IMG/VR virus record: IMGVR_UViG_3300011223_000001
Coordinates: 124,001-188,000 of that record
DNA: 64,000 nt
Direction: 5' to 3' (one strand)
DNA from: an uncultured virus (IMG/VR IMGVR_UViG_3300011223_000001)
Taxonomy: Duplodnaviria > Heunggongvirae > Uroviricota > Caudoviricetes
In this document: piece after piece, positions 1,942 through 64,000 of the stretch
Layout of the letters: the number at the start of each line of letters is the position of its first letter
Numbering within the stretch: the first letter of the stretch is position 1
Translations under genes and position numbers: made by a program
The notes under the pieces: generated by a model
Databases searched by the model: none
What the model was told of the DNA's origin: nothing
Seen by the model: the letters and a program-made list of their open reading frames with translations, nothing else

Positions 1942-2840
1942 CACAAGACCAGTTCAAGTACAGGCTTGTACGTTATACTGGTTGTTTGACCGGTGGATAA
2001 CACCGCACCGTTATCAGGCCGGCGGGCCACCGCGTTTTTAGGTGTGATGGTGCTTTGAGTAAGGTAGTAGGTGGTGTTGGAGTTGTTAACGATGTCATCG
2101 AAACGTGCCACCGCAGGTGAGTAGAGTGTGCTCAACTGCGCCAAAGCAAAAATTGCATCAATCTCACCACCCATATACAACGCAGCTGTGGCGGTTTCAT
2201 CGTTTGGAATTGCACGACTTACCGGGCAGCGTGGTTGGAATTGGTAGTTCTTATAGGTCAACCGACGGGTCTGATCGACCGTTCCATAATTGCTTTTCAC
2301 GGCATCAGGAATCACGCCGGCTGCGTTAGACCCATACACCAAACCGGCTTTATACGCTGTTTCGAACGTAGCCCCTGTGAAAAACCCGGAGTCAGGAAAG
2401 TACAAGATTTTTCCTTTGACGATGAATTTCAACCACTGTGTGGCAAGGTTCGCCCCAGTTGGTACTGTCCAATCCAACGCAAAGTATGATTTGAACTCAG
2501 CAGGTCCGATTAGGTCGTCGATAGCAAAGCGGCCAAAGTACCCCAGCTCGTAATCACCGCGGATTATTTTGCTAGGCCCAGGCCCGGTATCTGGCAGGTA
2601 CATCAGTGGCTTGTTGGGTGACAGGACTGATTCACCGCCCTTGCTGACTTCGACACGGTAGTAGTACAGGGTATTGCGGACAGCGGTGTCGTCGGCGTAC
2701 TCAGTTGCGGTAACTGCTAATGTGGCCAACGCGGTGGGTAACGCACTGCTACTAATCGGTGCTGTGCTACGGTAAACTTTTATTGCGTCTGCCCCAGCGA
2801 TAGGGTTGGTGATTTTGAAACGAATGCTCATGGGATTCAC
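1941..2840 (-). CDS. Virion tail-associated protein, phiKZ gp131-like family, with N-terminal FN3-like domain
   Basis: Family motif DTGPGPSKIIRGDYELGYFG ... WLKFIVKGKILY ... YKAGLVYG ... YKPVLELV; N-terminal YADDTAVRNTLYYYRVE. Confidence 0.75.
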   Translation of the reverse strand: MNPMSIRFKITNPIAGADAIKVYRSTAPISSSALPTALATLAVTATEYADDTAVRNTLYYYRVEVSKGGESVLSPNKPLMYLPDTGPGPSKIIRGDYELGYFGRFAIDDLIGPAEFKSYFALDWTVPTGANLATQWLKFIVKGKILYFPDSGFFTGATFETAYKAGLVYGSNAAGVIPDAVKSNYGTVDQTRRLTYKNYQFQPRCPVSRAIPNDETATAALYMGGEIDAIFALAQLSTLYSPAVARFDDIVNNSNTTYYLTQSTITPKNAVARRPDNGAVLSTGQTTSITYKPVLELVL

Positions 2841-3781
2841 TCATTAACCAATTCAAGAACTGGGTACCACTGTTGTAAGGTGGTGGCGTTGTAATCGTAC
2901 CAGTTACGTTTTGAGAAGTTCGCTCTTACCATAACCGAACCCGTATCACCACGGACACAGGCCTGTGTCGCGCTTAGTTGGTCTTGACACCATGCGATAC
3001 CATTAACGAGACCCATTTCAGCAGCGGTGTAGGAACCCACGTTGACCATGCGTTGTTTATTGGGTACTAAAACAGCAAGTGGGAAGATGAGGTCATCCCA
3101 TTCGCAGCGAAGATCGTCAGTCGGGTCCTTGTCAGGTACAACGGTTTCTGGGAAGTCTGCAAGATTGTCACTGTAGCCTGTCATTAGACGCACTACGAAT
3201 GTATCGGGTCCGATCTTAATGCGTTTGTTTTGAGGCACCTTGGGGGTGGGTAGGAACGCACCCTTACCTGCGTCACCGGTACCATAGACCAAACCTAGGT
3301 TATACAGTTGTAGCCAAGATATTTTAGCAACCAGTGCTTGATTGGGTATGTACAGGACTCTTCCATTACGCGACCATTTATGCCATTTCAGTGTGGTTCT
3401 TGCTGCGGTCAGGGGGGTCAAAGATATACCCACGCCCGTTAAAAGTGCATCGACACTAATAAACTCGGCCGTGGTGAGTTCACCTAGGTAACCGTAATTC
3501 AGATCACCCACTTGGAAGGTGTTAGGGCCTGGACCCATCCGATAGTTGGCGTAGACCTTCACGTTTTGTGACACGTCGCGGTCATTGGCACTGATCGCTT
3601 CATAGACGTAATAGTAGGTGGCATTTCTTACAGCCGTTGTGTCCACCCATTCCGTCTCACCTTGACTGAGTGTAACCAGAGGTGTACCGAGGTTAGTCCG
3701 GTCGATGGGTGTATCGCCGCGATAGATCTTTACGATTACGGGACCCTTGTTGCGGTCAACCCAACTGTGTCTGATGTTCAT
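2837..3781 (-). CDS. Virion tail-associated protein, phiKZ gp131-like family, with N-terminal FN3-like domain
   Basis: GPGPNTFQVGDLNYGYLGE ... LYNLGLVYG ... WYPVLELV; paralog of both neighbours. Confidence 0.75.
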   Translation of the reverse strand: MNIRHSWVDRNKGPVIVKIYRGDTPIDRTNLGTPLVTLSQGETEWVDTTAVRNATYYYVYEAISANDRDVSQNVKVYANYRMGPGPNTFQVGDLNYGYLGELTTAEFISVDALLTGVGISLTPLTAARTTLKWHKWSRNGRVLYIPNQALVAKISWLQLYNLGLVYGTGDAGKGAFLPTPKVPQNKRIKIGPDTFVVRLMTGYSDNLADFPETVVPDKDPTDDLRCEWDDLIFPLAVLVPNKQRMVNVGSYTAAEMGLVNGIAWCQDQLSATQACVRGDTGSVMVRANFSKRNWYDYNATTLQQWYPVLELVNE

Positions 3782-3791
3782 GGGACCTCGC

Positions 3792-4673
3792 TTAAATTAT
3801 TTCGGTGATCGATGGTGGGACAGTGAGCATCGTGTTAATTCGGATGTCTTGCGGACTCTTAGCGGCGAGGCTGTAGTCTGGCTCGACTTCGTACAATGCT
3901 GGATTTTCAGACAAGTCGTTGGTGATCGCTAGGTCCATGGGTGTAAACACCACACTACCTGGCTCTACCAGTTCAAAAACGGGTCGCCAAGGCTGTGTAC
4001 TGGTTTTTGCAACCGTAGTTGATGTGGTTATGTCCCCATCCGTATTTTTGTTACTACCCCTTATGACGGTGTAGTCGGTAGACCGTGTCCACGTATCCAT
4101 AGTGAGTGATGTCAAGCCCAATGTACCGGCCAACTCAGCGTACGTATTGCGTACCCAAGGCACCCCCTCGTAACCATGTATATACAGCTTTTGAAATAGC
4201 CGATCCCACTCGGAGTTTTTGCTGTTGGTGTTATCCTGGACCTCGTTGTCTAGGCCGCGCAACAACCTAAGCTTAAGCGGCCATTGACGCCCCTGTTCTT
4301 TTATAAAGGTAATGCGAAGTTGATCCACCGAACCCAGTGTGGACGGAACACTGCCATATCCACGTCTACCATACACAACACCTGCTGCATAGAGGTTGTT
4401 CCAGGTACTTAAACCAATGGGTTGTTTGGCAATGTAGATAACCTTTTTGTCGATAAAGCACTTCATCCATTTTGCAACGATTTGCGCATGCGGGGTTCCA
4501 GCAGCACCGCTGAATTCCCAGACCATCGCATTGGACATAAGCTCGTCGCTTGAGACCTCACCAAAGTACCCGAGCGTCTCGTCACCAAACTGAAGTATCT
4601 TTGTACCCGGACCTGATTCAGGGTATTCCAGCCCGCCTTGTTTACCACCTAGGCTTAGTAGTATCTCTAACAT
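3792..4673 (-). CDS. Virion tail-associated protein, phiKZ gp131-like family
   Basis: SGPGTKILQFGDETLGYFGEV ... LYAAGVVYG ... WRPVFELV. Confidence 0.75.
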   Translation of the reverse strand: MLEILLSLGGKQGGLEYPESGPGTKILQFGDETLGYFGEVSSDELMSNAMVWEFSGAAGTPHAQIVAKWMKCFIDKKVIYIAKQPIGLSTWNNLYAAGVVYGRRGYGSVPSTLGSVDQLRITFIKEQGRQWPLKLRLLRGLDNEVQDNTNSKNSEWDRLFQKLYIHGYEGVPWVRNTYAELAGTLGLTSLTMDTWTRSTDYTVIRGSNKNTDGDITTSTTVAKTSTQPWRPVFELVEPGSVVFTPMDLAITNDLSENPALYEVEPDYSLAAKSPQDIRINTMLTVPPSITEII

Positions 4674-54052: not shown

Positions 54053-54256
54053 TTAGACGCCGAGTTTTTTCGAGATGCGGGCGGTCAGTGCTTCGCGGAT
54101 GTCGTCATCCTGAAACAACTGGCCATTGAGGGTGGCTGACACTTCATCAGTGCCCAAGCAGTTCCGGATCACTTCAGTGCCCAGTTCCACCATCGACGCC
54201 AACGCTTGGGTGTTGTGCGCGTGGGCGATGTTAGGACTTACGTTTTGCTCTTGCAT
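54053..54256 (-). CDS. Small hypothetical protein
   Basis: ATG at 54256 with GAGGA RBS; overlaps the end of the beta gene. Confidence 0.55.
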   Translation of the reverse strand: MQEQNVSPNIAHAHNTQALASMVELGTEVIRNCLGTDEVSATLNGQLFQDDDIREALTARISKKLGV

Positions 54257-56810
54257 GGGTGGTTCCTCTATACACTGCGGCGACATGCTTGGACAGCGAT
54301 GCCATGTTCATGTTGGTGGTGGCGATGAGTTTAGGCGACAGTACCATTCGCTCCTCAACCGAGGTGTTGGCAAACTTCAATCCCAAAGGACGTCCGTCTT
54401 CCAAGTAGTTCTCACCTTTGAAGACCCCCGAAATGATGGTCTTCATCTGGTTGGCTACCACACCCTTGTCACCGATGCCGGCAGCCACATCGTGGTCGAT
54501 GTAGATACGGATGGCGAGGCTGTCTGGATCGATAGGTTCACCTTTGATGCGGAAGCTGAAATCCACTTCGCCCGTGAAGGGGGTTTCGCCCATGGCAAGT
54601 GCAAGCTCTTTCCGTTCTTTGTCGCCACGACGCGCCAGGCTTTGCAGCGATTCCGACATGTCTTCGAAATCACCGTGGTAGTAAACCTCGATTTTCGAGA
54701 CGGTCCCCACCACGCCTGCCTTAGGCGACTTGGCTTCGATCCGGCGCAAGGTATCCAGCGCGGTGTCGCCAAAGATCGGGTTGTTTGCCAGCTCAGGGTC
54801 TTCGATTCTACATAGAATTGTTTCCAAGTCTACGTGGTCACCGACTTTCACAAGAGCATCGACGACCTGATCGAAACGCACCACGATGTTGCGTGGCTCA
54901 CTGGCCTGGGTGTTGAACTGCTGAGCGACTTCCTCGGAAATCTCACAACCGTCTTCAAGCGTTGTGATCTTCTCCATGAACGCCACCGTGCACATGACGC
55001 CCATTTTCATGGAGACCTGTGTGGGGTTAAAGCGGTCAACTTGGAAGAACTTGCTGTTGTAGGAAAGGGTATCGCCAGCTTTGAACGCCATCCCTTCTTT
55101 AAGTGTTGTCGTCAGTGTGTGTGGGTAGGTGTGACCTGCGGCGACGCCATGGCGAAGACCCAGTGGTACGATCTCAACGGTACCGTCAGCGTAACGCACC
55201 TGAAGTGACCATTTGGTGATCTTTTCCACCACCCCATCTTGCGCAGCGGCGGTGGCGAAGTTCGCCGTGGTGCCTTGGCCAATGACCTGTTCCTCACCGG
55301 TACGCAGCGGCGGTACGGCGGCGCCATCACAGAAGATCGCTTGCTGCCACTGTACAGACACAAAACCGATGCGCTTCATGTCGTCGTGTTCAACACAAGG
55401 CGAGAGCAAGGCCGAGGAAGAGAGTAGCTTAGCAGGACCATCCCCTTCTTGCTTCGGTCGGGTCATGCCGCGCAGGTCGGTGATGTTAGCGTCTGGCGTC
55501 AGGTAGGCAATCACACCCACTTCACCGGAGTCCACAGTCGCTTCACCGGTAGTGCCTTCATCGTCTTTGTGGAAGACGCGGGTGCGCTCCACCATCGACA
55601 CCGAAGAACGACCACCGTCACCACGGTAGGTGTAGCCTTCCTGTTCACGCTGGTTGGCCATTGGGTTGGATTCTTCGACGATGCCGACCGAAGGGTCCTG
55701 TACCAATTTCTGCCACACGGCGTAGGGATTCAGCTCCACCCCGATCTCACCGGCCGACGAGCGGTTGTTAAAGGACTTCACCGCACGGGATAGTTCGCCA
55801 TACACCACACCCGAGAACCGTTCATAACCCCGGTACCGCATGAACTTAGGGTCGGTCTCTTTGGGGCAGTAGTCGGTCATCAACAGCTCAACTGCACGCA
55901 CCAGCAACTTGGAGAACTCGGTGGGTTCACCCATTTGCAGGAGCAGCCCTTCTGTGATCGGATCGACCCAGGCAGTCTTGAGTGCATCGAGTTCACGCAG
56001 GTAGCGCACACCGAGCCCCGCTTCTTCAAGCAGGCGGTAGTAGACGTCTTTCTTGTCAAAGTCCCAGACCGAGAACTTCTTCAAGCTGCGGTGGTAACGG
56101 TTCAGGCCGTTGAGGATCATCATCGCACGAGTGTCGGTGGTGGACAGGACAATTACCTCGTCCTGGAACACCAGCGTGTATGCATCCTCGGGCAGCTGCA
56201 AACGCTCACCCCGTGGGTGGCGACTGTGCTCGATACCCAGTTCTTTGATGAGGTTGCTCAGGCCATAGTAGTACGCCAGGGTAAAGCCCACGGGTACTAC
56301 TTTGTTCTGAACCGTCATCTCAGCGACTTCACCCGGGGCGCGGGTGGTGTCCAACTGGATAACGTCTGTCAAGCTGCCGATAGCATCCTGACCATCCGGT
56401 GTGTTGATGTACAGCACGTTGTTGGTGTCGATACAGATGGCTTGTGTGCCGACCACTGCCAGAACGACCTGACCTGCCAACTCGCAGGTTTTGACGTCGA
56501 TACCGTGTTCAGCAAACCACGCTTCACGATTGGCGTAATCGAAGTAGAACTGGTAATCTCCCGCTTTGAAGGAGGTAACCTGTTTGGCCAGCATCGAGTA
56601 GGTGCGAGGCAGTTGCAGCTCTTCTTGGAACACGTTACCCAGCTTCAGCTCGGTGATGCTCGTGTCGTCTGCCTTAAGCGCTGTGGCTTTGATGGTGGTA
56701 AGCAACCACCGCTCATAGTCGTCTGTCTTACGCTTAGAGCGATCGACAAAGACCTTATTAAAGTAACTGGTCAGTGCCACACGGAAGTCATTGACTTTGC
56801 GGATTGGTAG
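54231..56810 (-). CDS. rpoB: Virion RNAP beta subunit (phiKZ gp178-like), exon 2
   Basis: GDGGRS, DSGEVG, HDDMKR, WQQA...PLRTG, EDGCEIS and GIGDKGVVANQMKT are beta-subunit motifs; begins LPIRK right after the intron's terminal G. Confidence 0.88.
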   Translation of the reverse strand, partial: LPIRKVNDFRVALTSYFNKVFVDRSKRKTDDYERWLLTTIKATALKADDTSITELKLGNVFQEELQLPRTYSMLAKQVTSFKAGDYQFYFDYANREAWFAEHGIDVKTCELAGQVVLAVVGTQAICIDTNNVLYINTPDGQDAIGSLTDVIQLDTTRAPGEVAEMTVQNKVVPVGFTLAYYYGLSNLIKELGIEHSRHPRGERLQLPEDAYTLVFQDEVIVLSTTDTRAMMILNGLNRYHRSLKKFSVWDFDKKDVYYRLLEEAGLGVRYLRELDALKTAWVDPITEGLLLQMGEPTEFSKLLVRAVELLMTDYCPKETDPKFMRYRGYERFSGVVYGELSRAVKSFNNRSSAGEIGVELNPYAVWQKLVQDPSVGIVEESNPMANQREQEGYTYRGDGGRSSVSMVERTRVFHKDDEGTTGEATVDSGEVGVIAYLTPDANITDLRGMTRPKQEGDGPAKLLSSSALLSPCVEHDDMKRIGFVSVQWQQAIFCDGAAVPPLRTGEEQVIGQGTTANFATAAAQDGVVEKITKWSLQVRYADGTVEIVPLGLRHGVAAGHTYPHTLTTTLKEGMAFKAGDTLSYNSKFFQVDRFNPTQVSMKMGVMCTVAFMEKITTLEDGCEISEEVAQQFNTQASEPRNIVVRFDQVVDALVKVGDHVDLETILCRIEDPELANNPIFGDTALDTLRRIEAKSPKAGVVGTVSKIEVYYHGDFEDMSESLQSLARRGDKERKELALAMGETPFTGEVDFSFRIKGEPIDPDSLAIRIYIDHDVAAGIGDKGVVANQMKTIISGVFKGENYLEDGRPLGLKFANTSVEERMVLSPKLIATTNMNMASLSKHVAAVYRGTTHARAKRKS

Positions 56811-57185
56811 CATCCCAATCCAAAATGGACCATATCTTCACCCGCCACTGCTGTGGGTAGGGTGCCTACCATTTCGGCTCTCCTTCACAGGAGAGGTGAT
56901 TTTATTCACGACATTTGCATGTCCCTACTCTACTCGCTTTAATCACTTAAAGTGACCACCCGGTTTTACACGGATGTCATTAGTCGCTGCCGCGATGTAG
57001 CTTTCGATGGCCTCTGAGCACACCCCATGGCTGTCGCTTTAGGGGCTTCGCTGCGCCGGTTGTGCCTGTCAATGACGTTTTTACCATACCTGTCACTTCC
57101 ATTACTGGGACAGGTGTTACACTGGGTTTCCCCGTGTAAGTGGTAGTCATTGCATACGGCAAGTTCCCGCAATTAGGTAGGTTTT

Positions 57186-58349
57186 CTAGTGAAGTATTTC
57201 TACCTCACGCGGACCATGTGGTTTACTAATGGTGATACTCTCATCAAAAACATGACCTTTGTAACGCAGTGCCATCTCAAGGGCTATCTCTATCCCGCTG
57301 TTGTCCATCTGCTGGTATACCAACTCCAACAGATAGTAACCACGTTCTTTGGCTAGCGCTCGTTTAGCTTCGTCGTTCTTGATGGTTTCTCGAAAATACA
57401 ACTCACCGCCAAATAATGCGACCGGTTTAAAATGCTGATGTCCATGATGCTCGATGAGGATGTTGTACTCAGGGATGTAGAAATCAAAACGATACCGGTA
57501 TGGCACCACCTTAAACTCTTGGATAAACCCTATCCCGTGCTTCTCTAGAAAAACACGTATCCGTGATTCACCTTTCGATTCTTTGCATCTGGCGCACCCG
57601 CCTCTGGAGGAGACATGTCCGTTTGGTGTTATCCAAAAGGGCCCATGCTTATCACAAACAAGCTCAACCTTTGTTTTACTGGTTACATAGACAACCCGAC
57701 TATAGTCGTATTTATCGCCGTGAACCAATGTGGCCTGTTTAATGAATTCCTCTACACCGAGTCGATTGCCACTGTTGTGGCACTGTTTACAACCATGTCC
57801 ATCTAGGTGTGACCTAGGTAACTGCTGATACGGACCGTGGCTTGGGCAGACTATCGTAACTGGTAATGACCTTTTGTCATAAACCACGAGAGAGTAATCG
57901 TATTTATCACCATGTCGCTGTTGCGATGCAGCAATAAACTTCTCACGTGTAGAACGTTTTCGTTCTCTAAAACACCGACTACACCCCACCTTCTTCCCAT
58001 AATGCTCATATGGCGTCACGGTGAAACAACCATGGGTAGGGCAGATGATATTTACTGCGGTGTTTGTATCGACAAATTCAATTTGACTGTAGTCGTATTG
58101 ATTTCCATGGGCCGCATTGGCCCGTTGGATAAAGTCTTCTTCGGTTACTCTAGAATTCCCGCAACGCGAACACCCAAAAGGCGATCGCAAAAAGTACTGC
58201 GCATTAATTTCAAAGTCACCATGCACCTTGCATGCGATGGTTACATTGTGGCGCCGCCCTCTGTAAACAGTATTCGTATAAATGAATTTTTCACCGAATT
58301 TGTTTCTAGCTAGTTCAATGAAATTTTCAGTGGTGAGTCTTGCAACCAT
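57186..58349 (-). CDS. Intron-encoded endonuclease: four CxxH...CxxC zinc repeats plus a C-terminal DUF559/Vsr-like PD-(D/E)xK domain
   Basis: Repeats like HGDKYDYSxVxY...VxIxCxxHGxF...GCxxC; C-terminal SKGE...QEF...RFDFYIPEYNILIEHHGHQHF; ATG at 58349 with GGAGG RBS; AT-richer than the flanks. Confidence 0.85.
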   Translation of the reverse strand: MVARLTTENFIELARNKFGEKFIYTNTVYRGRRHNVTIACKVHGDFEINAQYFLRSPFGCSRCGNSRVTEEDFIQRANAAHGNQYDYSQIEFVDTNTAVNIICPTHGCFTVTPYEHYGKKVGCSRCFRERKRSTREKFIAASQQRHGDKYDYSLVVYDKRSLPVTIVCPSHGPYQQLPRSHLDGHGCKQCHNSGNRLGVEEFIKQATLVHGDKYDYSRVVYVTSKTKVELVCDKHGPFWITPNGHVSSRGGCARCKESKGESRIRVFLEKHGIGFIQEFKVVPYRYRFDFYIPEYNILIEHHGHQHFKPVALFGGELYFRETIKNDEAKRALAKERGYYLLELVYQQMDNSGIEIALEMALRYKGHVFDESITISKPHGPREVEILH

Positions 58350-58357
58350 TGTAAACC

Positions 58358-58383
58358 CCTCCACGGTTATTATACCATAGAGG
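58358..58383 (-). promoter_or_regulatory. Hairpin sequestering the endonuclease RBS
   Basis: Minus-strand CCTCTATGGT-ataata-ACCGTGGAGG is a 10-bp stem (two G.U pairs) with the GGAGG in its 3' arm. Confidence 0.65.
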
Positions 58384-58391
58384 TGCTTTTA

Positions 58392-60164
58392 ATCCGCACG
58401 CTGCCATTTCATTCGGTACAGCACGCCGTTAGACATGAACCGACCGTCTTTGTCGACGACAGGTACACGGAAGCGGACGGTGGTTTGACGACCCCGGATT
58501 GGCTTGATGGTAACCGAATGGATTTCGTAGTGGTTCATGGCGTCACGCACCACTTCCACTTTGTAATCCTTAACGGCGACACCTTGTTTCTGAATCGCGA
58601 TGACCGCGTTCAGGATGTCTTTGCGCATCAGGTTGGTAACGTAGGCCTTGGTGATGCCCTTGAGCTTTGCATTGAGCATGCTCTTGTCGATGATGGTCGA
58701 CTTGTCCGGGTAACTCTGCTGCGCAGGCAGCTGGGTGTCTTCCGGGGCGATCTTCATCGCGTCTTCGATGGTCTTCCCGGTCCCGTAGGGATCAGGTAGC
58801 TCTTTAAAGCTCAGGGAGTCCTCGATAGCGCGATTCATGGAGCGCGCCGTGATGACCCCTGTCTGCGACATCTCAAACGCTTTAAGGGCGATGGGGGCGA
58901 CGTTAGGGTCACCTAGGAGCTGGTCGGCAAAAGACGTCGGGGTGTCTTCCGGGTCTTCGTCGGTGATGTCATCGATGGTGGAACCGATCGGATCGAGAAG
59001 CTCATCGTCATCGTCGGTGGCCAGCGTTTCAATCTTACCCGCCTCAGGTGCTTGTGGGACTTCGAAAGTATCCACGTCCAGCCCAGAGAACAAGTCCAAC
59101 CCATTATCCGCGGCATTGCCTGCTCCAGCCACTTCACTGCGGTCTTCGTCGTCTTCGTCCTCGGCCACGGTGGCTGAATCGTCAGTAACGGTCTTGGCAG
59201 TGATCTTGGTTTTGGCAACCGGCGTCTTCTCTTCCTCACCCAGGTTCAGGAACAGCCCTTCGCTGTCTTCGTCCAGTTCGGTGCCTTCCAGCTGGAACTG
59301 GTGCAGGCCGCGCAGCAAGCGAATGAACGCCATCTGAAGTTGACTGCCCTCGATCCCACCGGGGTTGAGGGTTTGCTCCTTGCCGTTCTCGTCTTTGACT
59401 TTCTCTTTACGCCAACTGTCAAGCAAGCCAAGGTTCAGAACAAAGAAGTGAGTACGCAGGCGGAACAGGAAGTTGATATGACCATAGGCGTCTTTGGGGA
59501 TCACCGCCATCTTTGACCTGGCCCGGTCCGGGCCGAGCCACAGGTACAGATCATGCGCCGTCAGGTGCGAGGCTGTGGGGAACAAATCCAAGCTGGCCTG
59601 CGTAATGCCGCCAGTCAAGAGGTCCCACTTGGACTTGGCCGGAATCGAGTTAGGTACTTCGAACTCGATGTACTGGTTCCAGCGGAAACGAGCATGGGCT
59701 TCGACCACGTGTTTCCAGAAGGTGTCGGCGTTGTTGTTCCAGCGGTAGTACGTGGCCTTGTATGAGGCAATGTACTTGTACAGTGGGTTGAGCATGTTGA
59801 AGTTGACCACCAACATGCTTTTCTCGTTGATGGTCAGCGCCTCATCCTTGCGCAGCGGACGGAACGTGCGGTTGACCCGGCGAAAGTCTGCTTCAAGGGT
59901 ATTGGGGTTAACCACAGTGCGCCTTGGATTACCCAGGCTGCCTTCAAGGTGTTTTACGTGTTCAATGAACAGGCGCCCACCTTCGGTGTTGAACAACCGG
60001 TCCTGTGGGGAAGGCCCCACGATCGCCCCGTTGTCGCGGTAGTACTGGTAGATCGAACTCAAAGGTAGATGGAGCTTGCCCATCGGTGCCATACGCGGTT
60101 TGAGCAGCTGTGCGCGCTGCCGTAACCCGTATTGCTGGTAAAACTTCGGCTGTTTATAGCGCAT
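58392..60164 (-). CDS. rpoB: Virion RNAP beta subunit (phiKZ gp178-like), exon 1
   Basis: ATG at 60164 overlaps the beta-prime stop; ends ...VPVVDKDGRFMSNGVLYRMKWQRAD at the 5' splice site. Confidence 0.82.
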
Positions 60165-61815
60165 GTGCCACCCGTGGTTTTGGTTGCCCGGTGATGTACA
60201 GCAGGGTGAGGTTGACGGTATGGATATCGATACCAAAGCTCATCCCGCCACCTGCTTGGATATAAGCGCGGCGTTTGGTGAAATACTTCTTCGCCTCAGC
60301 CACAGCTTCATCAGAGTAGGTGGCGTTATAGCTCATGGTGTCGCCGTCAAAGTCAGCCCCTTTGGCTGTCAGTCGGGCCGGTGGAATACTGGTTGAATCA
60401 TGGTACTGGGGCAGGGAATCACCCCCAAGGCGTGGGAACTCTTTGGCCACGATGGATTCGTCACGAACCCAGTTGCTGTCAAGGCCATAACGCAGCTCAC
60501 CCGGCACTGTGGTCTTGACGTACTGCATCACAGGCGAGGAGCTGTTGAAGTTCTCAACCGGGTAGCGTGTCACGAATGCTGCGGTGTCCTCCCACATACT
60601 CAATCCGGCGAGGTAGATCATCTCGACATACGAGAGCGGTCGAACGAACGCACGGTTAAAGCCTTCGGGTAGTTCGTCGATATCCCGGAAGATCTTGAAG
60701 CAGCCTTTGTCGTCAACGTAAATCAAGGCCAGGTAATAACCCTCGATCTCAACCGGACGGTGGCGCTTGTTGATCACCGAAAGCTCATCCACCACTGCTT
60801 CCAGACCTTCCTCCGTGGACCAACGGTCCATGGTTTCGTTGGTCACTCCCACCCACTCCAACTGCAAGGTCTTTTTGTTGACCAGTTGGATATTGTTGGT
60901 ATTGCTGGAGAAGATTTGATCCAGCAGGGAGTTACGCAGGTGGTACACCGTTTTAGGCAGTACCGCAGCAGCTGCTTGGTACAAGCCCACCACGGCGTCG
61001 TTGAACTTGGGTCGGTTCGGGGCATCCAAGTCCACTGCCGTGACGTCCAATGAGGAGATCACGTTCCGGGTGCCGTTAAACACCTTACGCGATGCCCACT
61101 TGGCCTGGATCATACCCCCCTTGCCTTTGATCAGTGTTTCGAGGTATTCGTAGATCGCCACCACCGTAAGTTGCATGGCATAGCGAGTACGGTCGTAGAT
61201 CGACAGGTCATCCCCACGGTTAATACGTTCGGGGAAGTTGCGCCCTTGAATCAAGCAGCGTTGATACAGGTCATTGATCTCACCGACCGTCACACGGCCC
61301 GCGGCATCGACCTCTACGTCGCGCAAACCGGCTGGCAATACCAACAGATGGCTGAAGGTCGCTTTCGCTCTGTAACGCTCAATCAGCTCGATCTGGACGT
61401 TACGGGTGGTAGAGTCCCCTTTCTCAAACTGAAGGGACTGCCAATTGTCCATGAAGAAGCTGTAGCCGGTTTTACCGTCAACTTCGTTGGACCGTTCGAA
61501 AGTTCCTTTTACGGTGTTAAAGATGGCGTATTCCTTGCCTGCCATGATGTCCACGTAAAACGCTTTCATCTTAGACAGCACCCGGAAGATGATCGGGTGC
61601 AGCACAGGTAGGCGCAGATCGATGTGACCGAAGGTCATGTCCCGCATTGGGTCACCCACGCGCCCAAAGATGGACGTTGAGAACAAACCCTCATCATCGA
61701 AGCTACCGCCAGGACCATCCATGATACCCAGACTCTTGACCTGGGGCACGAGCCGAAGCATTTCCGGCGTGGGGATCAGGAGGCTGATGTTCAAGGGTAG
61801 CAATTTCTTTTTCAC
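60154..61815 (-). CDS. rpoC: Virion RNAP beta-prime subunit, N-terminal/catalytic part (phiKZ gp180-like)
   Basis: GLFSTSIFG, FGHIDL...HP, VLPAGLRD, RKVFNGTRNVI, TRYP and catalytic GADFDGD; GTG start at 61815 with GAGG RBS. Confidence 0.92.
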   Translation of the reverse strand: MKKKLLPLNISLLIPTPEMLRLVPQVKSLGIMDGPGGSFDDEGLFSTSIFGRVGDPMRDMTFGHIDLRLPVLHPIIFRVLSKMKAFYVDIMAGKEYAIFNTVKGTFERSNEVDGKTGYSFFMDNWQSLQFEKGDSTTRNVQIELIERYRAKATFSHLLVLPAGLRDVEVDAAGRVTVGEINDLYQRCLIQGRNFPERINRGDDLSIYDRTRYAMQLTVVAIYEYLETLIKGKGGMIQAKWASRKVFNGTRNVISSLDVTAVDLDAPNRPKFNDAVVGLYQAAAAVLPKTVYHLRNSLLDQIFSSNTNNIQLVNKKTLQLEWVGVTNETMDRWSTEEGLEAVVDELSVINKRHRPVEIEGYYLALIYVDDKGCFKIFRDIDELPEGFNRAFVRPLSYVEMIYLAGLSMWEDTAAFVTRYPVENFNSSSPVMQYVKTTVPGELRYGLDSNWVRDESIVAKEFPRLGGDSLPQYHDSTSIPPARLTAKGADFDGDTMSYNATYSDEAVAEAKKYFTKRRAYIQAGGGMSFGIDIHTVNLTLLYITGQPKPRVAHAL

Positions 61816-61874
61816 GCAGAACACCCCTCGGGCTGGACAACAATATGAATGATTACACGTACCGGAGACCTTAA

Positions 61875-64000
61875 ATGGCCGGCAAGAAGAAACTAGGTGA
61901 TCCAAAAACCAAAGCCCCCATGCTGCTCGGTGGCTTGGATCTGGACGACATCGACAGCCTGTTAGGTGATGGCAGCAACACCACCTCGTCCGGGAACCGC
62001 ACACCAGGCGCCTCGATTCGCAAACTGACCACGTCGAGCAAGAACACCCTGCGTGACCGTGTCACGGCCAAGTCGGTCCTCGCTGCTTTTGCCCGCACGG
62101 CGCTGCCTGATGGCTACACCCGTTTGTTGGGTCTCTACGACGAAGCCCGTTTGGGTGTCCAATCCGTAGTCGACGGCGTTGAACAAACCGAATATGCCGC
62201 CCTTGAGAAGCTGACCGAACAGTTTCAGGACCACCTGCCTAAACTCAAAGGCAAGGTCTCTGATGCAGTCTATGAGCGGATCAAACAGAAGATCGAAGAG
62301 CGTAAGGACGATTATGCCCTGCGTCGCCAAATTGATCAGGCTCAAGGCGCCCGTAAACGCGGGGACTACGATGAAACCAGTGAAGGTGCCCAAGTTCAGC
62401 AGATGCTGGACAACATGGAACTGGATCAACTTCAAAACGAACAGGCCAAAGCCGCAAGTGATGAAGAACACAATAAATTAGAATACGATATCCAACGGGA
62501 CAGCATCCAAGCCCGGTTGGACAAAACACGTTTCAATTTGTTGAACCGTCACCTGGGCATGATTGCCGATGCCAGTCAGCGCAGCACCGCCTATAACGAC
62601 ACCGTTACCTACCAGTTCCAGAAGAAAGCCTTGGAGCTGAACCTGCGCCAGTACTTGGTGCAGCGCAACCTGCTTAAAGTCGCCACTGACGGTCTTCAGT
62701 TGCAACGAGAGGCGTATACCGCCATCGTGCACAACACGTCACTTACAGAAGAACAGAAGACGACCGAAGCTGAAAAGGCCAAGTGGCACCTTAAGCAGCA
62801 GATCCGCAATCCGTTCCATCAGTTGCTCTCTAAGACCGCCGCCGATGCCGCTGCTAACTTCCTGCCGAACCTGTTTAACAACATCGGTTCGAAGACCGCG
62901 GGTACCGTGCGTGGAACCGCCCAAGCGGGCACGGGTCTGCTGGGTATGTTGGTTAGTCGGCTGGCGCAAAACCCTGAAGAAGCCGGCGGGCAGATGCTGG
63001 GTGAAGGGCTGGCGCATGCCTTGCACAGCTACGTCATTCCATACGCGGCCCGTAAAATCAGACCGGCCGCACAGGCGGTTTCTGATCGCCTGACTGACGG
63101 GGCTGATAGCCGTATCGCCTACAACCTTGACAACATGGCGTCGATCGCACAAGACTTCGCCAATGACCCCAGCCAGTCCACTGGCATGCGGGGTAAACTG
63201 CAAGGTTTGGTGCGTGCTTTTGCGCCACAGTTCCGTGTCGATGACCTGGTCAAAACCGGGACTTATCAAACCATTGATAAGGCAGCGTCGTTCAACCAGA
63301 TGTCGCAGCGTTCGATCGTTGAGGTGATCCCAGGTTACCTCGCCCGGATTTTGCAAGAAACCCGGATGATTCGCACGGGTGATCACACGGTAGGGCGTGA
63401 GGTCTTCGACATCACACGCGGGCAGTTTGTCCAAGAACGCAAAGCCCAAGACAACCTGGCCAAGCGCATTGTTTCGGCTGGGGCTCGGCGTTCGGTGCGC
63501 TGGTCGTTGAACAATGCCACGGAACATTACGATGACGAAGGCGTCCTGTCACCTGAGGCTAAGCATGCGCTGGAAGAACGCCTGCTACGGGACGCCATGG
63601 AAGGGCGTCATTTCGATCCTGTGGCCTATACCAACGTCAACGGCTATGCCCCAGGTACCGACCCTGCGGTGTTGAACGAACTTGAGCAGTTCTTCAAAGC
63701 CAAGTTCAAATTCGATGCCAATGGTAAACTGACCAAGGATGCGGGTAACTACCGCAAACGTCAAGAGTACTCTCAGCGCTTTAACGAGCTGCGTGACACC
63801 GTACGCAGTCCAATCGCTGAAATCGAGCGACTGCTACGTTCGGGTAACCACACCGCGTTGCGTGATCTGGGCATCATCAAGACCGTTGAAGGTGAAGACC
63901 GGATCGACTTTGGTGTGCTTCGCGACATGTACCGCGACTTGGGTGATCCGAATGGAGGACCCGGTACGCCGCCCCCTGCACCACCGGGTCCAACCGACCC
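61875..64000 (+). CDS. Tail tape-measure / lytic protein (phiKZ gp181-like), 3'-truncated by the window
   Basis: ATG at 61875 with GGAG RBS; the frame appears open to the window end, which would explain its absence from the track; YQFQKKALEL and QRSIVEVIPGYLARIL motifs; divergent from the beta-prime gene. Confidence 0.75.
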   Translation, partial: MAGKKKLGDPKTKAPMLLGGLDLDDIDSLLGDGSNTTSSGNRTPGASIRKLTTSSKNTLRDRVTAKSVLAAFARTALPDGYTRLLGLYDEARLGVQSVVDGVEQTEYAALEKLTEQFQDHLPKLKGKVSDAVYERIKQKIEERKDDYALRRQIDQAQGARKRGDYDETSEGAQVQQMLDNMELDQLQNEQAKAASDEEHNKLEYDIQRDSIQARLDKTRFNLLNRHLGMIADASQRSTAYNDTVTYQFQKKALELNLRQYLVQRNLLKVATDGLQLQREAYTAIVHNTSLTEEQKTTEAEKAKWHLKQQIRNPFHQLLSKTAADAAANFLPNLFNNIGSKTAGTVRGTAQAGTGLLGMLVSRLAQNPEEAGGQMLGEGLAHALHSYVIPYAARKIRPAAQAVSDRLTDGADSRIAYNLDNMASIAQDFANDPSQSTGMRGKLQGLVRAFAPQFRVDDLVKTGTYQTIDKAASFNQMSQRSIVEVIPGYLARILQETRMIRTGDHTVGREVFDITRGQFVQERKAQDNLAKRIVSAGARRSVRWSLNNATEHYDDEGVLSPEAKHALEERLLRDAMEGRHFDPVAYTNVNGYAPGTDPAVLNELEQFFKAKFKFDANGKLTKDAGNYRKRQEYSQRFNELRDTVRSPIAEIERLLRSGNHTALRDLGIIKTVEGEDRIDFGVLRDMYRDLGDPNGGPGTPPPAPPGPTD

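Follow-up and report, generated by a model that had tools for sequence, protein, structure and literature searches.

Evidence for a mobile, nuclease-encoding group I intron in the virion RNA polymerase beta gene of an uncultured tailed phage

Group I introns with homing nucleases are established in the RNA polymerase (RNAP) genes of chimalliviruses. In the phage PhiPA3, according to Birkholz et al. 2024 (PMC11620839), gp210 is the nuclease of a mobile group I intron in the virion RNAP beta gene (gp211/gp209), and it gives PhiPA3 an advantage over phiKZ (PMC11620839; review PMC12908238). The element described here lies at 56811..58391 on the minus strand of a 64,000-nucleotide (nt) stretch of an uncultured Caudoviricetes virus, a giant phage of the phiKZ-like kind (IMG/VR record IMGVR_UViG_3300011223_000001, positions 124,001 to 188,000; hereafter the window). 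It is a further example of such an intron, distinguished by its site, by the family of its nuclease, by the placement of the nuclease open reading frame (ORF) in the P1 loop and by an unusual 3′ helix. Like the PhiPA3 gp210 intron, which has a group I core scoring 67.8 bits in Rfam, it lies in an orthologue of phiKZ gp178, encodes a homing nuclease and directly follows a conserved Asp codon. The PhiPA3 intron, however, follows gp178 D1072, which corresponds to exon-2 residue 477/478 of the window gene, whereas the window intron is inserted at gp178 594/595; and the PhiPA3 nuclease is an HNH nickase, whereas that of the window combines DUF723 repeats with a predicted Vsr-like domain. The Pseudomonas chimallivirus 201phi2-1 has the same gene (gp273/274) annotated as an interrupted, joined coding sequence (CDS) (NC_010821); its intron, about 336 nt long and without an ORF, occupies the PhiPA3 site (exon-2 residue 477/478), and the gene is continuous there at the site used in the window.

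We regard it as very likely that the element is a mobile, self-splicing group I intron inserted in phase 0 between Asp591 (GAU) and Leu592 (CUA) of a 1450-residue virion RNAP beta subunit of the gp178 type. The original prediction had taken two minus-strand ORFs, 58389..60236 and 54231..56813, for exons of one gene. Both are present in the ORF listing, and they are exactly colinear with single-piece homologues: exons 1 and 2 match positions 3-574 and 575-1423, respectively, of phrog_3148 (RNAP beta subunit, 1424 positions; PHROG), and in blastp alignments the halves abut with neither gap nor overlap on Noxifer gp195 (595/596) and phiKZ gp178 (594/595), each of which is annotated as one CDS. 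The predicted boundary letters also hold. Exon 1 ends CAG CGT GCG GAT at 58392; the 1581-nt intron opens with an in-frame TAA (58391-58389; first base U 58391) and ends ...GGGATG, its terminal guanosine (omega-G) at 56811; and exon 2 opens CTA CCA ATC CGC AAA at 56810. The true start of exon 1 is an ATG at 60164, 11 nt inside the upstream RNAP gene, so that exon 1 covers 58392..60164 (591 codons) and, with exon 2 at 54231..56810 (859 codons plus stop), gives the coding length of 591 + 859 = 1450 codons that had been proposed. Each exon is an open frame, with 78-85% identity to Noxifer. When 81 residues of Noxifer gp195 spanning the site were searched against 50,697 phage records, they matched 288 of them and were in one piece in 283, indicating that homologues are not naturally split at gp178 594/595; a natural split there would have spoken against the intron. 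The site (QRAD/LPIRK) is occupied in 5 of these 288 deposited records. An intein was rejected because the first intron codon is an in-frame stop. Pfam gave no match at E 0.01 or better for the exons and neighbouring genes, a PDB sequence search with the first 400 residues of exon 2 gave none, and neither did megablast of the intron region against phages.

The same boundaries are found in natural alleles that lack the intron. Contigs of four sequencing runs were aligned to the region, no run containing more than 19% of the region's sampled words. Two DNA contigs from different studies, X1 (2192 nt, 3 differences over 457 aligned nt) and X7 (710 nt, 14 differences over 611 aligned nt), have flanks 98-99% identical to the window and pass from 56807 directly to 58391, adding two letters; their junction, in coding-strand orientation, reads GCGGAT-TTG-CCAATC, and exactly 56811-58391 (1581 nt) is missing. 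The X5 contig stops at the same point, and its loose end matches the intron-less junction. X1 and X7 therefore establish that near-identical phages without the intron exist and that the boundaries inferred from protein alignment are the natural ones. In run X9, labelled RNA-Seq and probably DNA, the pieces of related introns were all short and diverged, and none gave an informative joint. An intact intron-encoded nuclease and intron-plus and intron-minus alleles at one site in close relatives, the marks of a homing intron, are thus both present. The first exon-2 codon is CTA in the window and TTG, also Leu, in X1, X7 and Noxifer, and the C+1 of CTA can pair with the G beside the guide sequence (P10, below). 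This codon difference could have arisen by co-conversion, or it could shield the occupied allele from the nuclease.

Assignment to group I comes from a covariance model and from introns at the same site. With E-value thresholds, the full RF00028 model (Intron_gpI, 1-253) aligned to minus-strand positions 56808-57272 with a score of 43.7 bits (E 2.4e-9 when 2 kb was searched, 7.7e-8 for both strands of the entire 64-kb window), and scored 45.3 bits in a genome-wide search; the covariance-model match suggested as a check was thus obtained, at a score below the curated gathering score of 50. In this alignment P3, P4, P6, P8 and the R and S elements fall at their expected places, with large insertions in P5 and in the gap between P7-5′ and P3-3′. 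By blastn the core matches the Vibrio jumbo phages vB_VmeM-Yong (four records) and vB_pir03 over about 185 nt at 71-74% identity, and Serratia phage KpGz_1 over 136 nt at 73%. Yong XC31 (with its three sister records) and pir03 carry their introns at the same codon boundary as the window, D/[MV]PIRK. In Yong XC31 the exon-1 alignment extends to the final residue of that exon, and a 35%-identical nuclease ORF, a 43-bit Rfam match and exon 2 from residue 1 follow; in pir03 exon 2 and the nuclease align in the same way, the end of exon 1 having been placed by eye. Compared with the window, these two have nucleases of 35-37% identity, cores of 58-60% identity and Rfam scores of 43-45 bits, and their introns lack P2 and have an ordinary P9. 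Gene callers had been expected to split such a gene, and the Vibrio phage records examined do list the halves as separate CDSs; the word "intron" is absent from the pir03 paper (PMC7765460).

A search of IMG/VR with a 19-nt P3/P4 core pattern yielded 15 contigs, all with the same codon boundary: exon 1 aligned through residue 615, the last of its ORF, in 15/15, and exon 2 aligned from residue 1 in 14 and from residue 2 in one. With the two Vibrio jumbo phages these make 17 same-site relatives, or 18 sequences including the window. A nuclease homologue (35-54% identity) is present in eight of the 15 IMG/VR contigs; the other seven introns are 405-688 nt long, lack an ORF and retain the core, so that the RNA must be under conservation in its own right. 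Low Rfam scores (40-45 bits) are a property of the intron family as a whole, which points to an atypical architecture rather than decay. A comparison of intron-core identity (58-76%, nucleotide) with exon-2 identity (34-57%, amino acid) gave no clear signal of horizontal transfer and was not used.

The ribozyme fold covaries across these relatives. A 93-pair model, which includes the P7 pseudoknot, P9.0 and the 3′ helix, was assembled from an RNAalifold proposal, the Rfam alignment and inspection, on 18 aligned cores (508 columns) that are related to each other. Standard pairs form in 93.9% of 1634 cells, as against 31.7-39.1% in slid controls (3′ partners shifted by 1-3 columns), a contrast inflated by taking the structure string from the window's own sequence. 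Changes on both sides occur in 60 of the 93 pairs, and 0/500 shuffles reached any of five observed covariation measures, which, with the Rfam E of 7.7e-8 on the window, excludes chance. Compensatory changes are seen in P2, P5, P5a-c, P6, P7.1, P7.2 and P8. The catalytic core (56827..57181, minus strand, as for all elements below) comprises P3 (57181-57176/56870-56865), P4 (57171-57166/57059-57052), P5 with a P5abc-like three-way extension (57161-57063), P6 (57051-57018), the P7 pseudoknot (57014,57012-57008/56832-56827, bulged A 57013) and P8 (56864-56839). The P5abc-like extension has an invariant GAAA loop (L5b), and P6 has a receptor-like motif, CCUAA(G/A)...(U/C)AUGG, reading CCUAAA/CAUGG in the window. 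P7 is 100% paired; its strands read GGCCA/UGGUC in the window and GACUA/UAGUC in the Vibrio introns, a compensated change. Group I introns are marked by a P7 G-C pair that binds guanosine and lies beside a bulged A, and by a terminal omega-G; here G57012-C56828 adjoins bulged A57013, both P7 G-C pairs are invariant in 18/18, and the last intron base is G in 18/18.

Covariation among the 18 sequences, the covariance-model match and the intron-less alleles together uphold the original prediction's group I intron at its proposed boundaries. Three of the core elements proposed there, P (57164-57174), P3 (57176-57181 with 56865-56870) and S (56827-56839), lie where both the Rfam alignment and the 93-pair model place P4-5′, P3 and J8/7 plus P7-3′. 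The fourth, R (56980-56990), was misassigned: the string is present and forms the 3′ half of the P7.1 hairpin, and the true partner of S, the R element proper, is GCUCAGAGGCCAUCG (about 57019-57005). Consequently the segment from P7-5′ to P3-3′ is about 137 nt (57008 to 56870) rather than the 110 nt counted from the misplaced R. It holds three covarying hairpins, P7.1 (56995-56984, pairing 56995-56992/56987-56984), P7.2a (56976-56957) and P7.2b (56956-56942), and a variable insert (56925-56876). Hairpins P7.1 and P7.2 between P7-5′ and P3-3′ are in the defining position for subgroup IA, but the intron also has the P5abc-like extension with its GAAA loop and the receptor-like motif in P6; IA, the type proposed originally, is a candidate assignment.

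P1 lies outside the core alignment because the nuclease ORF sits between its strands, and it was checked by script. Its 5′ strand is the last six nt of exon 1, GCGGAU (58397-58392), and its 3′ strand is the internal guide sequence GUCCGC (57209..57214), in which G 57214 is the partner of U 58392 at the 5′ splice site. In every one of the introns (18/18) a hexamer that complements the final six bases of exon 1 in full, G.U at the cleavage site included, lies 31-34 nt ahead of the P3 pattern (11 nt ahead in the two Vibrio introns without P2), and the guide tracks six exon hexamers: GCGGAU, AGUGAU, GGGGAU, GGCGAU, GUGGAU and GGAGAU. An extended P1 of 9 bp, an initial reading by eye, was abandoned, its additional bases being part of P2, a hairpin at 57189..57208 (GUGAGGUA-GAAA-UACUUCAC) with compensatory change in 8/8 pairs.

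The 3′ end of the window intron is unusually built, with only 16 nt between P7 and the 3′ splice site. J7/9 and the 3′ tail (56812..56826) supply P9.0 and the 5′ strand of a helix formed with exon 2. In P9.0, AU 56826-56825, immediately after P7, pairs with AU 56813-56812, immediately before omega-G; this pairing is kept in 18/18 with the variants AU/AU, AC/GU, AA/UU and others, and 2/2 pairs are compensated. The tail UGGAUUGG (56822-56815) pairs with CCAAUCCG in codons 2-4 of exon 2 (56800..56807) at -11.2 kcal/mol (z -2.3), which puts the 3′ splice site inside a 7-nt loop, GAUG/CUA. Among the 16 non-Vibrio introns, with eight exon hexamer types, this tail/exon-2 helix covaries with synonymous changes at the third positions of Pro and Ile codons: cognate tail/exon helices average a score of 6.9 versus 5.2 for 240 non-cognate combinations, and in the alignment count the helix is 87.4% paired with 3/6 pairs compensated. 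In the Vibrio introns its place is taken by an ordinary P9 hairpin. P10 is minimal, the G beside the guide pairing with exon-2 C+1 (U with A+1 in the IMG/VR contig L020 and in L004, Yong XC31), and is paired in 17/18 by manual count. A 3′ hairpin proposed by RNAalifold that pairs omega-G was rejected, its outer two pairs being P9.0 and its remaining U.G pairs competing with the better-supported tail/exon-2 helix. It is possible, though we hold this only tentatively and think it doubtful on balance, that in the 16 non-Vibrio introns this helix, with 6-9 intron bases, replaces P9 and most of P10. The ribozyme would then define its 3′ splice site through host coding sequence and impose selection for RNA structure on the polymerase gene, and, with the stop and start codons at its boundaries, the arrangement may be a ready intermediate towards the split RNAP genes of jumbo phages. 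Literal term searches, a weak instrument, found no published account of a helix between an intron tail and its 3′ exon, and we make no claim of novelty; the helix is a small, testable structural oddity.

The position of the guide sequence at 57214-57209 means that the 387-codon nuclease ORF sits in the P1 loop. The ORF (57186..58349, 387 residues plus stop UAG 57188-57186) runs between the P1 strands in L1, and its last codons traverse the guide sequence and P2 to end at the UAG of the conserved joining segment J2/3 (CACUAGAAAA). It is intact, aligning end to end with 8 homologues (35-54% identity) with 73 invariant columns, and 909 phage records contain relatives of it at E 1e-10 or better. 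The protein matches phrog_559 at 3e-66 and contains four DUF723-type zinc-finger repeats (Pfam DUF723, 45.4 bits vs a cut-off of 20.9), which are described as zinc-finger DNA-binding modules of phage homing nucleases (PMC10448857). Its C-terminal domain has the invariant motifs ES.GE, R.DF, IE..G.QH, FGG and D..K. An AlphaFold (AF2) model of this domain from 9 sequences (pLDDT 78.6) resembles most closely, by Foldseek, the Vsr endonuclease 1cw0_A (E 8.6e-3, TM 0.53) and the catalytic domain of I-Bth0305I (3r3p, target TM 0.69). This likeness agrees with the annotation table for the homologous ORF 35 of pir03, where HHpred gives 3R3P_A at 97.46 (PMC7765460). I-Bth0305I (PDB 3R3P) has a Vsr-like catalytic domain and comes from a Bacillus phage intron, so that both proteins, similar in predicted fold, reside in phage group I introns; their identity is only 16%, and the DNA-binding part of the window nuclease consists of the four DUF723 repeats. 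The family of I-Bth0305I goes by the name EDxHD; the window, in which the motif is only putative, reads IEHHGHQH. Pfam gave no match for the C-terminal 144 residues even at E 10, an NCBIfam search returned chance-level rows only, and PDB sequence searches with the nuclease returned chance-level matches only.

Upstream of the nuclease ORF is a 5′ hairpin, CCUCUAUGG-N8-CCGUGGAGG (58358..58383; -18.3 kcal/mol, z -3.6), whose 3′ strand contains the Shine-Dalgarno sequence GGAGG (about 58362-58356) of the nuclease. The loop region of this hairpin (58367-58380) reads UAUGGUAUAAU, which resembles an extended -10 element, and strings containing UAUG occur at the equivalent place in several relatives; UAUGGUAUAAU may be a promoter for the nuclease gene, or the likeness may be chance. 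T4 td-type introns have a stop at the intron start, a nuclease ORF looped out from the core and a sequestered ribosome-binding site, and the td ORF lies in P6. The window intron shares the first three features; its ORF, however, sits within the P1 loop, overlapping both the guide sequence and P2.

From these features we infer how the intron would splice, where its nuclease would act and how that nuclease would be regulated. The intron is probably active. The last six exon-1 bases, GCGGAU, would pair with the guide GUCCGC 1.18 kb downstream to form P1 with a U.G at the cleavage site, and the P3-P8 core with the P7 pseudoknot would bind the guanosine that attacks after U58392. Omega-G 56811 would then be docked by the 2-bp P9.0, by the minimal P10 between C+1 and the G beside the guide, and by the helix of the tail with exon-2 codons 2-4, and ligation of the exons would produce ...WQRAD-LPIRK... 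The nuclease, with its ribosome-binding site predicted to be buried in the 5′ hairpin, presumably cuts intron-less alleles (GCGGAT/TTGCCAATC), so that the intron would be copied into co-infecting relatives.

Several points weigh against this account of a splicing intron. At gathering thresholds Rfam gives no group I match in the whole 64-kb window, 43.7 and 45.3 bits both being under 50, and for the nuclease domain Foldseek gives weak E-values (8.6e-3 and 1.8e-2). The contrast with slid controls is inflated, as said; the six P3 pairs and 4/6 P4 pairs are invariant, and thus uninformative either way; and P10 amounts to 1-4 bp only. None of the runs sharing words with the region is on record as RNA, and splicing itself was not observed. 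Moreover, the in-frame stop right after exon 1 and the in-frame AUG right before exon 2 would permit separate halves to be made from unspliced RNA.

This last point underlies the alternative that survives best, which we nevertheless consider unlikely: that the intron splices and unspliced RNA also yields N- and C-terminal halves, a possible intermediate towards a split gene. Unspliced T4 td pre-mRNA yields an N-terminal fragment, which is a precedent. At the window boundaries the first intron codon is an in-frame TAA, the final triplet of all 16 non-Vibrio introns (16/16) is AUG, GUG or UUG and shares the frame of exon 2, and in the two Vibrio phages exon 2 itself begins with AUG or GUG; in the window, however, the start codon and the purines upstream of it lie in or beside a stable helix (-11.2 kcal/mol), and the gene is in one piece at the site in 283 of 288 relatives. 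The same boundary features, together with the purine-rich GGAUUGGG upstream of the AUG at 56813-56811, could instead mean that a nuclease cassette has permanently split the gene, its halves being translated separately (UAA; AUG) into two subunits without splicing. Jumbo-phage beta and beta′ are naturally split, and the idea that introns gave rise to such splits is relayed in the Sokolova 2020 review (PMC7598289). We nonetheless judge a permanent split highly improbable, as a spacer that did not splice would not retain a 93-pair fold with 60 compensated pairs or a guide that tracks six exon variants in 18/18, nor would it persist without an ORF (405-688 nt) in 7/15 IMG/VR contigs. The putative ribosome-binding stretch, moreover, falls inside the tail/exon-2 helix, and the NUG ending of the introns is for the most part accounted for by the invariant omega-G and the P9.0 pairing of the two bases before it. 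Decay into a non-splicing intron that breaks the polymerase gene of a defective or misassembled metagenomic genome might be read from the sub-threshold Rfam score and the uncultured origin of the record, but it is about equally improbable, given that all core helices, P1, P9.0 and omega-G are intact in the window, that the nuclease ORF is complete and keeps every invariant residue, that the exons are open and 78-85% identical to Noxifer, and that Rfam scores of 40-45 bits are typical of the whole family.

Other introns were seen in related polymerase genes. A second group I intron (Rfam 80.7 bits, no ORF) lies in the same genome outside the window, at G000:C1:47684-48008 (+) (locus L022:1501-1825), and interrupts another RNAP beta-type gene, phrog_2987, whose positions 1-416 are found in L022:255-1535 and 415-476 in L022:1874-2110. 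Serratia phage KpGz_1 has an intron after the same phrog_2987 position (L006:3820-4257), beside the nuclear shell protein gene. In phiKZ (NC_004629) the gp180 gene appears to be interrupted at 2394-3836: residues 64-551 of the gp180-like protein of the window align to 924-2393 and residues 552-611 to 3837-4016, the stretch between them containing gp179 (endonuclease) and, at 3465-3786, a group I core of 92 bits. NC_004629 has no annotation for the short second exon of phiKZ gp180. Yong XC31 has an intron at the same gp180 point (L004:798-1204; residues 552-607 at 1251-1418), and the gp180-like gene of the window itself (60154-62004) is uninterrupted. In eight IMG/VR contigs (L007, L008, L013, L014, L016, L017, L018 and L020) the exon-2 alignment stops at residue 451-481, resuming in L018 482 nt later at residue 479, which suggests, as far as these alignments go, a second intron in the same gene at the PhiPA3/201phi2-1 site. 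A weak Rfam match to the mammalian CPEB3 ribozyme at window 3078-3161 (+) (22 bits vs gathering 35, E 0.26) is most likely chance.

For annotation, the locus should be read as encoding one 1450-residue subunit, not two, with the intervening 387-residue ORF a homing nuclease; five deposited Vibrio jumbo-phage genomes and 15 IMG/VR contigs need the same correction. QRAD/LPIRK is a second, independently occupied homing site in this gene, with a different nuclease family. It is in the same gene that the PhiPA3 intron nuclease was shown to be a weapon between co-infecting phages (PMC11620839), and the intron-plus and intron-minus alleles in near-identical phages described here are a natural system for testing phage competition. 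The second intron in an RNAP beta-type gene of the same phage supports the view that the polymerase genes of chimalliviruses are intron hot spots.

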